Shown here: positions 220 to 5,970 of the stretch, in pieces
Position numbering within the stretch: position 1 is the first letter of the stretch
Layout of the letters: every line of letters begins with the position of its first letter
Assembly: GCF_029227855.1 (NCBI RefSeq)
Contig: NZ_CP074358.1
Reading direction: 5' to 3' (one strand)
DNA: 64,000 nt
DNA from: Escherichia coli
GTDB lineage: Bacteria > Pseudomonadota > Gammaproteobacteria > Enterobacterales > Enterobacteriaceae
The notes under the pieces: generated by a model
What the model saw: only the letters and a program-made list of their open reading frames with translations
Database searches by the model: none
Told to the model about the DNA's origin: nothing
Translations under genes and position numbers: made by a program

Positions 220-2445
220 TCAGTCGTCATTTTCCAGCGCTGTTTTGAGCGCTTCCTGCTCCGGAGTCAGCTCGTTGCCGGACAGCATAACCTTCAACTT
301 CTCTTCGACTGCTGGCCAGTCATCAAAGAACGGACTGACCTGGTCACGCGCAATCCGGCGATATGCCCCTCGGTGGGAGCTGAAGACACTGGTCTGTAAT
401 CGTATCAACAGGTTAACAAGGCCTTCATCAGTGGTAGTAACTTCTCTGACCCATTGCTTCACGGTTTCACCTGAACTCATGTCTCTCCAGGCGTAGAGAT
501 ACCCGAGAAGAGACTTGCGCAGGAGAAGCTGTTGCTGAAGTTCTGGTTGATTCATACGTTCCGCAAACCTGTCACGCAACCGTTCCGTAATATCGCGACT
601 GAAAAGAGCATCTGAAGGCGAAGGTACTGCATTCTGAGCAAGTCCATGTTCCCAGATAAGATCCCGCATAAAATCGGCTATCCAGAACGGCGAAGCACCC
701 GTAACGATCAGTTTTTCCATAAGCGTGATCGTTCTGGTCTCATCAATATCCTGCATATGCTTCAGCAGATGCCGTACAACCTCATTAATGGCCATTTCAC
801 GCAGGGAAAACCATGGGTTACGGATACTGAAGCGAGTGCTCACCTCATCGGTGTGCTCGAAGAAAAAATGAACCAGTCCTGCGCACTCTTCGAAATTACG
901 TTCTCTTATCAGGCCTGGAGTCAGTCTGCTCAGTATATGTTCAAACCAGGTTCCGGACAGACTGCCCACACTGTTGATTTTTGAGAGCAGCAATTCAGAA
1001 AGCTGCTGCTGTTTTTCCGATACGCCAGCCTGTTCAAAAAGCTGTCTGAAGAATTCAGGTGGCAGAACATTCTGTGGTGAGGAGAAGGCAAAATAATATC
1101 GCCAGTGCGTCAGGCTGCTGAGTCGTTTACCGGTCGTCTGGATATGACGAAAATCCTCACTGACGGGCTCAAAAAGATTCAGATATTCATCATTATGTCC
1201 ACTGATACCTGGGATCCAGTCTGCAAGTGTCAGAAACGAGTCTGCATTTGATGCCCTGAACGTCTTCATACATCTGATAAGCCCCTCCCGGAAGTCTGCT
1301 TTCTCTCCGTCAGAAAGCATACCCTGACCGGTTTCAATCACGGACCGTTCTGTCAGGTAATGCTCTGTCCAGTCATACAGAGCCGGGTTTGTCACCCGTA
1401 TAAGCTGAAGCAGGCACAAATCAGGGAAATAAACAAAATCCCGCATCCCCGGATAAAGAAAAATCAGGGAATTAATGGCCTGATGGATTTCCCGTGGCGT
1501 CGAAAGTGCGGCACCATAGGTATCAGTCACCGCGATGAGATCCCTTACCATTCCAGAGTCTGGCGGTTGATTATTAATTTGCTGATATAGAGCCTCAGCC
1601 CGCTGGCGAAATTCATTACGTAAATCAAAGGCTTCAGGTCGGGGTAATTTAAAACTAAGCTGAATGATTTTCTGGAGATAACGGCTGCCATCTTCGATAT
1701 TCAGCGCATGTTCAACGGCATGAGTGATAATCTGCCTGTCATAACAGAGAATATGGGTAAAGCGGGGCAGATCGGCTACTGCACGCACAAGCCTGAACAC
1801 TTCCGCCACCTGGGATGGCTCCAGTCGGTCCAGATCATCCATGACAACAATGAACTTCAGATCCAGACTCACCAGTTGTCCTGCAATTTCAGCCCGAAGC
1901 TTTGTCGTGGTTTTCTGATCAACAGCCAGACGGCTGTCTGAAAATACCTTTATTCCGCCTGCTATCCAGTTAATAATGCTGGAAAACTGTCCGATATATT
2001 GAACCAGTGGAAGGACGCGCGATGAAGTATCCTGAGCATACTCAATCACTTTTTGAGCTTCCGGTGACAACAGATATTTACGCCAGAGCTTTTTGAAGCC
2101 CTTCGGGGGATAGCGTATTTCCATTTCCTGCTGGATAACCGTGGCAACCGGAAGAAAGAGCGCTTCAACCGGACTGCCGCCACTCAGCCAGGGAGAAATA
2201 TGCAGCACATGTGTGTGAGCATCTTTTTTCAGGGCAAGGTTTCTCAGGATCAGATTAAGGAGGCTTGTTTTACCCGATCCCCATGCACCTTCTATTCCGA
2301 CAACATTTGAAGCCTCCAGAGGAAGAGTAAGGATGGAACGGGATATATTTTCTGCGATATTACCGAAACCGTATCGATCCTCAGGTACATCTTCAACTGC
2401 CGCATCAAGCCCTTTCTGGTTCCACAGCTGCCTCAGTATCTTCAT
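220..2445 (-). CDS. pifA: KAP-family P-loop NTPase, 741 aa; probable PifA (phage T7 exclusion / abortive infection protein of F-like plasmids)
   Basis: Walker A GAWGSGKTS near N-terminus, Walker B-like hhhhDDLDR, size typical of KAP NTPases; PifA is a founding member of the KAP family; start 1 nt after upstream gene stop (TAATATG). Confidence 0.7.
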   Translation of the reverse strand: MKILRQLWNQKGLDAAVEDVPEDRYGFGNIAENISRSILTLPLEASNVVGIEGAWGSGKTSLLNLILRNLALKKDAHTHVLHISPWLSGGSPVEALFLPVATVIQQEMEIRYPPKGFKKLWRKYLLSPEAQKVIEYAQDTSSRVLPLVQYIGQFSSIINWIAGGIKVFSDSRLAVDQKTTTKLRAEIAGQLVSLDLKFIVVMDDLDRLEPSQVAEVFRLVRAVADLPRFTHILCYDRQIITHAVEHALNIEDGSRYLQKIIQLSFKLPRPEAFDLRNEFRQRAEALYQQINNQPPDSGMVRDLIAVTDTYGAALSTPREIHQAINSLIFLYPGMRDFVYFPDLCLLQLIRVTNPALYDWTEHYLTERSVIETGQGMLSDGEKADFREGLIRCMKTFRASNADSFLTLADWIPGISGHNDEYLNLFEPVSEDFRHIQTTGKRLSSLTHWRYYFAFSSPQNVLPPEFFRQLFEQAGVSEKQQQLSELLLSKINSVGSLSGTWFEHILSRLTPGLIRERNFEECAGLVHFFFEHTDEVSTRFSIRNPWFSLREMAINEVVRHLLKHMQDIDETRTITLMEKLIVTGASPFWIADFMRDLIWEHGLAQNAVPSPSDALFSRDITERLRDRFAERMNQPELQQQLLLRKSLLGYLYAWRDMSSGETVKQWVREVTTTDEGLVNLLIRLQTSVFSSHRGAYRRIARDQVSPFFDDWPAVEEKLKVMLSGNELTPEQEALKTALENDD

Positions 2446-2446
2446 A

Positions 2447-3538
2447 TTACAGATCTCCGTACAGGCAGCGCAGCCCGGTCAGGGCCTCCGCCAGCGGGCC
2501 TTCTTGACACCGCGTGGCGAGCTCCCGGACCAGCGTCTCAAAGGCCTCCGCCGGCATAAAAATCCGCAGGCCGTCTATCCCGAAGAAGCCCTCCGGCGTG
2601 ACGTTTCCGGGCGGGGAGAACATCACTCGCTCCCCCTGGTGACCGTGCGTCAGGGCTTCCGGATGCCGGGCATACAGCGTGAACAGGCCCAGCAGTTCGG
2701 ATAACGCTTCCCAGCCGTACGGCACCACGAAGTCCTGGCCGGTGATCAGCAGGTGCAGACGGGGTGTGGTGTACCAGGCCCCCGGGCGTTCTCCGGGGTG
2801 CTGGCCGTCAACGCGGATCTCCAGGCGCAGCGTGCCGGCCTCAATGGTTTCCGTGACGGCAGAAATAACCGGGCGCAGCTCCTGTGCCAGCGTTCTTGCC
2901 TGTTCTGTGTTCCAGTCCAGGCCGCGCAGCATCAACGGGAAAACAGCTTTCAGCCGCGGCAGGGTGAAGATTTCTGCCAGCACCGCGTCCGGCACCTCCG
3001 CCAGGCCAAAACAGTCGCTCTCGAGCGGACGCAGGAGGTGTTCGGCATACATCTGATCCACCACGGGGCGCAGCGCTGCCCGGAAGGCTTCAAACTCTTC
3101 CGTCCAGTTTTTCCCGGCCAGGCGGAAAATCCCCTTCAGGTAGTGACCGTCCACAGGGCGATCGTGCTCCACCTGCCAGGCCAGCAGGTTGCCAGTGATG
3201 TCCAGCAGCGTGTCCAGGGCCGGGAGTGTGGCCAGCCTATTATGCCCGCGCAGGAAGGCCTCCCTGACGTGAACCAGGACAAAGCGCAGTTCGTCGCGGG
3301 AGAGCGCTGACGTGCCGAAGGTCTGGCCCAGAATGATATGCCGGTACAGCTGCCGGACCGTGGCCTCCGGATCGGCAATGAGCTGAAAATACCCGTCACC
3401 GGGCGCGACCGTTTTCAGGCCGTCATCGAGGAAGCGTTCGGCTAGGGCGTTGACCGAAGTATTTTCCCGACCGGCACGCGTTTTCAGCGCCTCGATAAGT
3501 TTTTTGTGAAAACGCAGGTTAAGCTGGCTTAGCATCAT
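2447..3538 (-). CDS. pifC: 363 aa protein with N-terminal ribbon-helix-helix/Arc-like motif; probable PifC (RepC) autoregulator of the pif operon
   Basis: N-terminus LNLRFHKKLIEALKTRAGRENTSVNALAERFLDDGL resembles RHH DNA-binding domain; ~40 kDa; immediately upstream of and coupled to the KAP NTPase gene. Confidence 0.55.
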   Translation of the reverse strand: MMLSQLNLRFHKKLIEALKTRAGRENTSVNALAERFLDDGLKTVAPGDGYFQLIADPEATVRQLYRHIILGQTFGTSALSRDELRFVLVHVREAFLRGHNRLATLPALDTLLDITGNLLAWQVEHDRPVDGHYLKGIFRLAGKNWTEEFEAFRAALRPVVDQMYAEHLLRPLESDCFGLAEVPDAVLAEIFTLPRLKAVFPLMLRGLDWNTEQARTLAQELRPVISAVTETIEAGTLRLEIRVDGQHPGERPGAWYTTPRLHLLITGQDFVVPYGWEALSELLGLFTLYARHPEALTHGHQGERVMFSPPGNVTPEGFFGIDGLRIFMPAEAFETLVRELATRCQEGPLAEALTGLRCLYGDL

Positions 3539-3565
3539 CGATCCTTTAATGTTTGTTTTGTTCTT

Positions 3566-3582
3566 AATGCTAACCTAGCATT
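3566..3582. promoter_or_regulatory. Perfect palindrome aatgcta-acc-tagcatt in AT-rich region upstream of pifC; candidate operator (pifO-like)
   Basis: Inverted repeat read directly from sequence ~35 bp upstream of the pifC start on the - strand. Confidence 0.35.
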
Positions 3583-4220
3583 TTATTATTAGCTATTAAT
3601 CAGTTTTTTAGTTTTTGAAAATTGTGATGCTTCTAAAATTACTAAAATTGAGGATTTTAATGCTACAACAATGCCTGCCTCTTCTTATTTCTCCGGAGAT
3701 CCGAAAACCCCAAGTTCAGGATCTTCCTCTCCCCCCACACAACGCCACCTCCTGTAAGCACAATATGTGGTGCCGGATTCAGCTACTGATGACACTATAT
3801 GTTGTGTCATCTCCCTGACCTGTGATGCGTCGCGCAGGGGCGGAAAACAGCGATATGATGATTTCCTCAGCGTGGTACACTTCCGGAAACCCGTCAATAA
3901 CAGAAAAATCGGATCTGCCTGAAATGGGCATCCGGTAATTTAATGGCGTGGTTATATGCCTGCTTATTATCTGACAGGTGATGATTTATTTAGGGGAAAA
4001 TAATTCATGCTGACAGAGTGTTGTGCTGCCATGCGTAATAACTCTGAGCGACTGTTGCTTCCGGTATCAGTTGAGTGAGGATTTTCAGACCACCACGTTT
4101 TACTGACCAGTAAAAATTTTTTTTGCCCGCAAGGCTGACAAGTGACTTCTTTTAGAATTTCGGCATCCACAACCAATGGCAGGAAGCCCGATGCAAAAAT
4201 TTTTAAGGAGAGCTCTTTTA

Positions 4221-4460
4221 ATGAAAATTGCTCAGCAATTACTGGAAGCCGTTCTGCAATTTATGAATGCATCTGCAATGACTCAGGTGCTGACGTTGCT
4301 ATTCCTGGCTCTGATAATACAGGTACTGAAAACATTAATTACGGCGTGGATAGTAAGAAAACCATCTTCAGGAGAGATGGTTTTAGACCGGAAACCTGAC
4401 TCTGCCGGGCGTAAGGATCACTGCAGGCAGCTGTCTCAACAAAGGAAAAAACATGGCTGA
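4221..4460 (+). CDS. Small predicted membrane protein (79 aa), unknown function
   Basis: ATG 4221 preceded by aaggag; hydrophobic segment VLTLLFLALIIQVLKTLITAWIV; stop overlaps next start (ATGGCTGA). Confidence 0.35.
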   Translation: MKIAQQLLEAVLQFMNASAMTQVLTLLFLALIIQVLKTLITAWIVRKPSSGEMVLDRKPDSAGRKDHCRQLSQQRKKHG

Positions 4461-4742
4461 CTGGTTTATTGCAACTGAAGGTGTGAAGGTGGTGAAAGAT
4501 AGTGCCAGCCTGTGGCCGCAGATCATCACGGCGGTTTTGTCTGCCGGTACTGCATTTGGTGGTGTGTGGTACGGGCAGTGGCGGATAACACAGCGAGAGG
4601 AGGAAGCTGCAACAGCGAAGCTGGTCAGCGAACGTCTCTTTATTGCCACGGAGCTGGTTTTTCTGCTGGAGAGGTTTGCGCAGCGTTGTGCTCCAGCAGC
4701 AACAGCAACTGTGGAGCACGATCAGGATGGCAGAGGAGAAGC
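4453..4742 (+). pseudogene. Membrane-protein gene truncated by the IS3 insertion (about 96 native codons retained)
   Basis: Strong RBS aaaggaaaaaacATG; hydrophobic segment LWPQIITAVLSAGTAFGGVWYG; reading frame runs into the IS3 left inverted repeat and stops inside it. Confidence 0.4.
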
Positions 4743-4798
4743 TGATCTTACCCAGCAATAGTGGACACGCGGCTAAGTGAGTAAACTCTCAGTCAGAG

Positions 4799-5107
4799 GT
4801 GACTCACATGACAAAAACAGTATCAACCAGTAAAAAACCCCGTAAACAGCATTCGCCTGAATTTCGCAGTGAAGCCCTGAAGCTTGCTGAACGCATCGGT
4901 GTTACTGCCGCAGCCCGTGAACTCAGCCTGTATGAATCACAACTCTACAACTGGCGCAGTAAACAGCAAAATCAGCAGACGTCTTCTGAACGTGAACTGG
5001 AGATGTCTACCGAGATTGCACGTCTCAAACGCCAGCTGGCAGAACGGGATGAAGAGCTGGCTATCCTCCAAAAGGCCGCGACATACTTCGCGAAGCGCCT
5101 GAAATGA
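4799..5107 (+). CDS. IS3 OrfA (transposase N-terminal HTH part)
   Basis: 102 aa, helix-turn-helix and leucine-zipper-like C-terminus ([19 protein letters not shown]); inside the IS3 ends. Confidence 0.9.
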
Positions 5108-5970
5108 AGTATGTCTTTATTGAAAAACATCAGGCTGAGTTCAGCATCAAAGCAATGTGCCGCGTGCTCCGGGTGGCCCGCAGCGGCTGGTATACGTGGT
5201 GTCAGCGGCGGACAAGGATAAGCACGCGTCAGCAGTTCCGCCAACACTGCGACAGCGTTGTCCTCGCGGCTTTTACCCGGTCAAAACAGCGTTACGGTGC
5301 CCCACGCCTGACGGATGAACTGCGTGCTCAGGGTTACCCCTTTAACGTAAAAACCGTGGCGGCAAGCCTGCGCCGTCAGGGACTGAGGGCAAAGGCCTCC
5401 CGGAAGTTCAGCCCGGTCAGCTACCGCGCACACGGCCTGCCTGTGTCAGAAAATCTGTTGGAGCAGGATTTTTACGCCAGTGGCCCGAACCAGAAGTGGG
5501 CAGGAGACATCACGTACTTACGTACAGATGAAGGCTGGCTGTATCTGGCAGTGGTCATTGACCTGTGGTCACGTGCCGTTATTGGCTGGTCAATGTCGCC
5601 ACGCATGACGGCGCAACTGGCCTGCGATGCCCTGCAGATGGCGCTGTGGCGGCGTAAGAGGCCCCGGAACGTTATCGTTCACACGGACCGTGGAGGCCAG
5701 TACTGTTCAGCAGATTATCAGGCGCAACTGAAGCGGCATAATCTGCGTGGAAGTATGAGCGCAAAAGGTTGCTGCTACGATAATGCCTGCGTGGAAAGCT
5801 TCTTTCATTCGCTGAAAGTGGAATGTATCCATGGAGAACACTTTATCAGCCGGGAAATAATGCGGGCAACGGTGTTTAATTATATCGAATGTGATTACAA
5901 TCGGTGGCGGCGGCACAGTTGGTGTGGCGGCCTCAGTCCGGAACAATTTGAAAACAAGAACCTCGCTTAG
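5104..5970 (+). CDS. IS3 OrfB (transposase catalytic DDE part; expressed as OrfAB fusion by -1 frameshift)
   Basis: 288 aa with DDE/rve integrase core (WAGDITYL..., HTDRGGQY..., E in SFFHSLKVE). Confidence 0.9.

Follow-up and report, generated by a model that had tools for sequence, protein, structure and literature searches.

A conserved palindrome upstream of pifC is very probably the core of the F-type pif operator, and its arms covary with one residue of the PifC N-terminal strand

Autoregulation of the pif operon of the F plasmid, in which the protein PifC acts through the operator pifO, is already known, and reportedly goes back to studies by Miller & Malamy in 1983/1984 and by Kennedy, Chandler & Lane in 1988. 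We take it that pifO was defined genetically in the 1980s as a cis-acting operator upstream of pifC, and that the pifC promoter was mapped as well. A full-text literature search found no paper describing the operator, the original 1984/1988 pifO papers being beyond its reach. In Arc and Mnt, two ribbon-helix-helix (RHH) proteins, it is the residues of the N-terminal strand that set specificity, and the Mnt operator is also a 17-bp palindrome, whose half-sites are spaced by about one helical turn and bind a tetramer. PifC also blocks the conjugation of rival IncP and IncW plasmids via their coupling proteins (PMC5696584), and in the reference list of that paper pifC is called the 'pif operon regulatory gene'.

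The locus described here lies in a 64-kb stretch of Escherichia coli DNA, which as a whole is referred to as the window. It carries pifC (2447–3535, minus strand) and pifA (220–2445, minus strand, 741 codons), the latter beginning 2 bp past the end of the former, so that pifC is the first gene of the pair. pifA encodes a KAP-family P-loop NTPase associated with phage T7 exclusion and is the presumed co-regulated cargo; its homolog in a relative's locus carries the annotation 'phage T7 exclusion protein'. The first-pass annotation, made from the sequence alone, had called the regulatory gene pifC, and the name is borne out by a protein 100% identical to PifC of F, for which the RefSeq product name is 'transcriptional repressor PifC'. 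Two neighbouring in-frame ATGs are found at 3533–3538, of which only the second (3535) is kept in all homologs and is also the start used in the F annotation; therefore, PifC probably has 362 aa, rather than the 363 aa listed for the open reading frame from 3538. The DNA is identical to that of F (NC_002483) from the pifC start to about position 3720, that is, over about 180 bp upstream of pifC, and the region is therefore F's pif control region.

Beyond that point, the window has another history. Identity to F is lost near 3720, and positions 3690–4750 are 99% identical to other E. coli plasmids, in which this junction to pifC is absent; IS3-family orfA and orfB follow at 4799–5107 and 5104–5970. 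By these matches, the window is a mosaic carrying an F-type pif module, since F identity stops at about 3720 while 3690–4750 matches other E. coli plasmids. The unannotated segment at 3682–3985 has matches in more than 3,000 IncF-type plasmids, with or without pifC, and contains the conserved block TTTTCGGATCT at 3697–3707 on the minus strand; this CGGATC block persists upstream of PifC homologs of 36% identity (loci L017 and L033). This segment may be part of the F primary origin region.

The proposed PifC operator, AATGCTAACCTAGCATT, occupies window positions 3566–3582 and consists of perfect 7-bp arms (3566–3572 and 3576–3582) around a 3-bp spacer, AATGCTA-ACC-TAGCATT on the strand presented and AATGCTA-GGT-TAGCATT in the pifC sense, while the flanking bases T3565 and T3583 add nothing to the pairing. 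The same 17-mer is present in F (positions 5793–5809 of the F locus, L001). Its near edge is 28–31 bp upstream of the pifC start, depending on which of the two ATGs is taken, and from its centre, 3574, it is 36 bp to the first in-frame ATG (3538) and 39 bp to the second (3535). G+C amounts to 29% over the surrounding 162 bp, and the earlier description of a perfect palindrome in AT-rich DNA about 35 bp upstream of pifC is confirmed. The palindrome by itself is within chance expectation: with perfect 7-bp arms and a spacer of 0–6 bp as the criterion, equal palindromes arise in 11.5% of Markov-1 shuffles when 100 bp of the region are taken and in 14.9% when 162 bp are taken, and 87 palindromes with such arms are present in the whole window. 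Its significance comes instead from its conservation among relatives and from its covariation with residue 6 of PifC. The 13-bp core, TGCTA-N3-TAGCA, occurs once in the window even when one mismatch is allowed, and the same search (one mismatch at most) found no second full PifC site there, for example in the origin-like segment.

For the comparison among relatives, 36 loci with PifC homologs were assembled (19 representative genomes, 10 plasmids and 7 distant cluster representatives), in which identity to F PifC runs from 100% to about 36%, and is lower (about 25–35%) for two subfamilies of about 300 aa. A repeat search by profile gave essentially the same close relatives, and an exhaustive search of representatives reached the distant members. 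The core (3568–3580 in the window) is the most conserved upstream element in homologs to about 36% identity and beyond. Within it, GCTA-N3-TAGCA is invariant in the site-bearing homologs of the Asn6 type, from F to proteins of 36% identity (L017 and L033) and to a distant 297-aa subfamily (L031), while variation is seen in the spacer, which is GGT, TGC, TGA or GCA according to lineage, and at the outermost T of the left arm. In an alignment anchored on the site with one sequence per lineage, the information content is 2.0 bits at the nine core positions versus a mean of 0.72 bits in the flanks. The position is kept as well, the core starting 47 bp before the ATG in 12 of the 14 Asn6-type loci that bear it, and the site is still present in L024, where other DNA has taken the place of everything upstream of about −60. 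Elsewhere the site is decayed or missing: L003 has a decayed left arm (GTAGCTA) with the right arm intact, L030 (Asn6, with Met5) shows scattered TTGCTA/TAGCAA half-sites and no clean 13-bp core, and L037 (Ser6, in an aberrant strand, MPNQQSLCF) has no clear site upstream. L036, with 26 bp of upstream DNA only, is uninformative.

The palindrome may overlap a promoter. A putative −10 hexamer, TAGGTT (3572–3577, minus strand), lies at the palindrome centre, the left arm contributing its last two bases, the right arm its first base and the spacer the three between, and a putative −35 hexamer, TTAATA (3594–3599, minus strand), lies 16 bp upstream of it. Across lineages the −10 reads TAGGTT, TATGCT or TATGAT, with T1, A2 and T6 constant, and the −35 position in the F clade reads TTAATA, TAAATA or TTTATA; in most class A loci, the top or near-top promoter candidate combines the conserved central TAnnnT of the palindrome with a hexamer resembling TTAATA 16–17 bp upstream. 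These results are soft, as the scan used our own position weight matrices (PWMs); TAGGTT is weak, matching the consensus at three of six positions, and a stricter consensus scan returned no promoter at this region. A weak, positionally conserved promoter with its −10 at the palindrome centre is suggested by the comparison of lineages. Downstream, the Shine-Dalgarno sequence of pifC can be read as AAGGA (3542–3546, minus strand), within an AAAGGA block that is kept in the class A alignment.

Further upstream, at a distance of about 125 bp from the ATG and about 90 bp from the palindrome, a distal half-site, TTAATGCTA (TAGCATTAA in the pifC sense), lies at 3657–3665; it is an exact copy of one operator arm plus two flanking bases and is conserved in the F clade. 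A distal promoter candidate has its −10 in the same place, either TAGCAT at 3665–3660 or TAAAAT at 3659–3654, and the combination ATGAGA-17-TAGCAT scores 9.2 in four loci in the PWM scan. The distal half-site could serve PifC as an additional binding half-site, or it could supply the −10 for a second promoter. Another candidate for an extra half-site, ATGCTAAG at the pifC start (3530–3537), was rejected, as it encodes Met-Leu and its third codon position varies elsewhere.

Which part of PifC might read such a site is indicated by structural models. In the AlphaFold2 (AF2) model of the monomer, helices 11–23 and 28–41 follow unstructured residues 1–10, whereas in a linked-dimer model, built from two copies of residues 1–47 joined by a flexible linker with 27 homologs as input, each copy shows a strand at 2–10 and the helices 11–23 and 28–41, with pLDDT of about 86–90. 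A DNA-binding RHH domain is thus predicted for codons 1–42 (3410–3535, minus strand), with SQLNLRF in its strand. The best PDB match of the linked-dimer model is 9f0x_E (TM 0.71, E 1.4e-4, about 100 residues), a tandem-RHH chain of the F relaxosome; the tandem-RHH chains of about 110 residues in the relaxosome cryo-EM structures are, from their size and fold, presumably TraY. The single-chain Arc 1u9p comes next, with a probability of 1.00. Searches with sequence gave fainter signals, the N-terminal profile finding Arc (E 0.12) and Mnt (E 0.45) as its top two PDB sequences, both weak, the Pfam scan yielding a sub-threshold DUF6364 alone (20.3 bits, E 8e-4, where the cutoff is 27.3 bits), and the NCBIfam scan yielding noise and nothing relevant. 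In the weak alignment to Arc, the PifC strand SQLNLRF is paired with PQFNLRW, so that Q4, N6 and R8 fall on Arc Q9, N11 and R13, and S27-V28-N29 on S32-V33-N34. Arc reads its TAGA box with Gln9, Asn11 and Arg13 from each of the two strands (PMC12645479). The PifC operator arm contains TAGC, and since Q4, N6 and R8 fall on this base-reading triad, residue 6 would be the central base-reading position of the ribbon. The models support an Arc/Mnt-like RHH at the PifC N-terminus, in which paired strands would form one antiparallel ribbon, and the alignments support the proposal that the polar strand residues face the DNA and set operator specificity.

The remainder of the protein, residues ~43–362 (window 2447–3409), is modelled confidently, with pLDDT mostly above 90. 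A Foldseek search of the full-length model against the PDB returned no significant fold match, the best matches of the C-terminal domain being weak ones to PUR-alpha and Whirly (WHY1/PBF-2) repeats (E about 0.08–0.3). This fold is of interest in view of the further activities of PifC, at an origin and towards coupling proteins.

That PifC itself recognizes the palindrome is also indicated by residue 6. Most homologs carry either Asn at this position, in a strand of the type MLSQLNLRF, or Thr, and the two groups have different upstream sites. TGCTA-N3-TAGCA is found in 14 of 16 Asn6 loci and in none of the 18 Thr6 loci, while TGACA-N3-TGTCA is found in 14 of 18 Thr6 loci and in none of the 16 Asn6 loci; two further, distant Thr6 loci carry a tandem TGTCATGTCA, likewise absent from all 16 Asn6 loci. 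The two operator types have the 17-bp frame AATG...CATT in common; what sets them apart is the inner part of the arms, CTA in one and ACA in the other. Among the 362 alignment columns, residue 6 is the only one associated perfectly with operator type, its mutual information of 1.0 bit being equal to the class entropy, and the runner-up column reaches 0.78 bit. Asn6/GCTA loci intermingle with Thr6/GACA loci in trees based only on the C-terminal domain, and parsimony on such a tree gives 8 changes at residue 6, about six of them between Asn and Thr. The apparent count of independent co-switches is inflated, however, because no more than about 130 bp separate codon 6 from the operator and recombination would carry both together.

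The position of the site also differs between the two groups. The Thr6-type palindrome lies at −93 to −134 and adjoins a good −35-like TTGACY instead of lying over a −10, and therefore the regulatory geometry is not uniform across the PifC family. Some Thr6 loci possess, between the promoter region and the start codon, a second and unrelated palindrome, CTGTATTCAGAGAATACAG or TGTATTCAAAGAATATA, at −39 to −21 in L006, L007 and L010 and at −38 from the ATG in L026, L027 and L029; it is absent in F-type loci. In the distant homolog L038, which has Ser at the position of residue 6 (strand VPSSFRF), there is no palindrome upstream, and two direct repeats of GTATTACAC are located at −55 to −17 from the ATG. 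These repeats may represent a third operator type.

We lean towards the view that the PifC family harbors a natural and repeatedly used RHH specificity switch, in which Asn6 would read arms of T-A-G-C-A and Thr6 arms of T-G-T-C-A, with about six joint switches of protein and operator, in copies on plasmids and on chromosomes, suggested by the sequence comparison. These 'switches' may be module exchanges instead of point changes, and even then the lasting retention of each residue/operator pairing needs explanation. Such a switch may keep co-resident PifC-controlled cassettes, serving phage exclusion and fertility inhibition, from repressing one another. If a single residue suffices, the pairing would provide a compact entry for the RHH recognition code and an orthogonal pair of repressor and operator parts.

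Taken together, the palindrome is very probably the operator of the pif operon and the core of F pifO, bound by RHH dimers of PifC in negative autoregulation. The proposal of the first-pass annotation, that it is a candidate operator for an RHH-containing PifC autoregulator, gains computational support from the conservation of the core, the covariation with residue 6, the RHH model and the identity of pifC, and the assignment is inferential but strong. Inference likewise extends to PifC binding and its stoichiometry, to the promoter as placed here and to the direction of regulation; that PifC represses follows the literature on F and the name that RefSeq gives the product. Mechanistically, the N-terminal strands (SQLNLRF) of two PifC chains would come together as a two-stranded ribbon and enter the major groove, where Gln4, Asn6 and Arg8 would read the bases. 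One dimer would occupy each arm (AATGCTA and TAGCATT), and because the arm centres are 10 bp apart, or one helical turn, the two dimers would share one face of the DNA and form a tetramer, as in the operator complexes of Arc and Mnt. Since the site overlaps the probable −10 (3577–3572), bound PifC would cover this hexamer and keep RNA polymerase off, so that pifC-pifA would be repressed. The leader of the transcript would be about 30 nt long and would contain the AAGGA sequence.

The best surviving alternative, which is compatible with the operator role, is that the palindrome serves mainly as a site of PifC (RepC) for replication from oriV1/ori-1, with autoregulation being secondary or absent. 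According to Tanimoto & Iino in 1984, pifC is reportedly required for replication from ori-1, located between pifC and ccd, and this need of the F primary origin for PifC speaks for such a role. So do the further conserved upstream blocks (TTTTCGGATCT and the CATCAC repeats), which are kept even in distant homologs, and the presence of segment 3682–3985 in more than 3,000 IncF plasmids. However, the spacing of the site is fixed to the pifC start codon (−47) and not to these upstream blocks, and many plasmids have the segment without pifC or the palindrome. In addition, the window holds a single full site, while origins usually have several. The fixed distance to the start codon and the retention of the site in L024, despite the replaced DNA upstream, point to promoter control in the sequence comparison, and a mainly replicative role is thus considered unlikely.

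Binding by a protein other than PifC, either a host factor or another plasmid regulator, has a much smaller chance of being correct. The link between PifC and the site is a comparative one, and the nearby conserved motifs (CATCAC repeats and AGTAAT) suggest that further factors probably act in the region. Yet the site travels with pifC on plasmids and chromosomes of many genera, and its class is predicted perfectly by one residue of the PifC DNA-reading strand, a tie that another binding protein would leave unexplained.

The chance that the palindrome acts as an RNA hairpin, whether in the pifC 5' leader for the control of stability or translation or as a terminator for transcription from the opposite side, is slighter still. 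In either orientation, its RNA can pair into a stem of 7 bp closed by a loop of 3 nt (−5.5 and −5.0 kcal/mol, z about −2), and TTTTATTATT follows it on the plus strand. Nevertheless, having 2 G-C pairs, the stem is weak, and the palindrome is absent from the terminators that the scan listed; the arms show no compensatory changes, the left arm of L003 (GTAGCTA) breaking the stem; and no plus-strand gene reads into the site. With a −10 at its centre, the palindrome would be incompletely transcribed, and an RNA role would leave the covariation with a DNA-facing protein residue unexplained. With such a weak stem, a z of about −2 and arms without compensatory changes, an intrinsic terminator or regulatory RNA hairpin was rejected. 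Finally, a functionless palindrome arising by chance in AT-rich DNA, an idea to which the 12–15% of region shuffles with an equally good palindrome and the roughly 1.2 occurrences of the core (one mismatch at most) expected per window of this size lend some color, is effectively refuted by the sequence comparison, given a nine-position core that is invariant and fixed in position while the flanks are near-random between lineages, its perfect covariation with PifC residue 6, and loci that are unlikely to be recent mutual copies because the proteins are only 36–87% identical.

The operator of the pif operon matters beyond its own circuit. PifC sets the level of PifA, the agent of the classic F-encoded exclusion of phage T7, and with the exact operator bases and the reading residue in hand, the circuit would be easy to derepress, titrate or rewire. 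The residue/operator pairing shows how related PifC cassettes could coexist without cross-talk, and the Asn/Thr pair offers a natural example for the rules by which RHH proteins read DNA. With respect to cargo, PifC homologs precede the KAP NTPase PifA in L023, L024, L028 and L030, and an unrelated protein of about 290 aa in L025 and L026, and an S-4TM pore-forming effector and the anti-phage protein Ppl are among the neighbors in the plasmid loci L023–L030. RHH proteins of the PifC type may regulate small defence cassettes in general.

Compared with the described systems, the closest is the F pif operon itself: the DNA is the same, PifC is the annotated repressor there, and the site lies where the upstream cis-acting operator is expected. 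The flagged palindrome very probably belongs to this long-known regulatory system and is not something new. With respect to F pifO, the proposed base-level assignment of the operator, that of the RHH fold and the covariation with residue 6 come from this analysis and not from the papers of the 1980s. The new content, drawn from sequence comparison, is modest, consisting of a proposed base-level operator core, the probable Arc-like RHH assignment of the PifC N-terminus and the pairing of Asn6/Thr6 with GCTA/GACA.

Next come Arc and Mnt of phage P22 (immI region), which are the best PDB sequence matches of PifC at a marginal similarity (E 0.12–0.45). PifC shares with Arc the Gln-x-Asn-x-Arg triad of the strand and the Ser-Val-Asn start of helix B, and its operator arm, TAGC(A), resembles the TAGA box of Arc. 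The two phage repressors are small, at 53–82 aa, whereas PifC has 362 aa with a C-terminal domain of about 320 aa whose fold is unmatched; moreover, PifC is plasmid-borne, controls a phage-exclusion gene and has a different operator sequence. The plasmid RHH regulators and antitoxins (TraY, CopG, ParG, omega and the CcdA/ParD type) resemble PifC in having an N-terminal RHH, which reads repeats or palindromes over their own promoters as proposed here for PifC, and the linked-dimer model of PifC 1–47 is structurally similar to the tandem-RHH chain in the F relaxosome, with a TM of about 0.7. In contrast to RHH antitoxins, PifC is without a toxin partner, and unlike the plasmid RHH regulators, its site is a single inverted pair instead of an array of direct heptads, and its C-terminal domain separately inhibits the coupling proteins of rival plasmids (PMC5696584).
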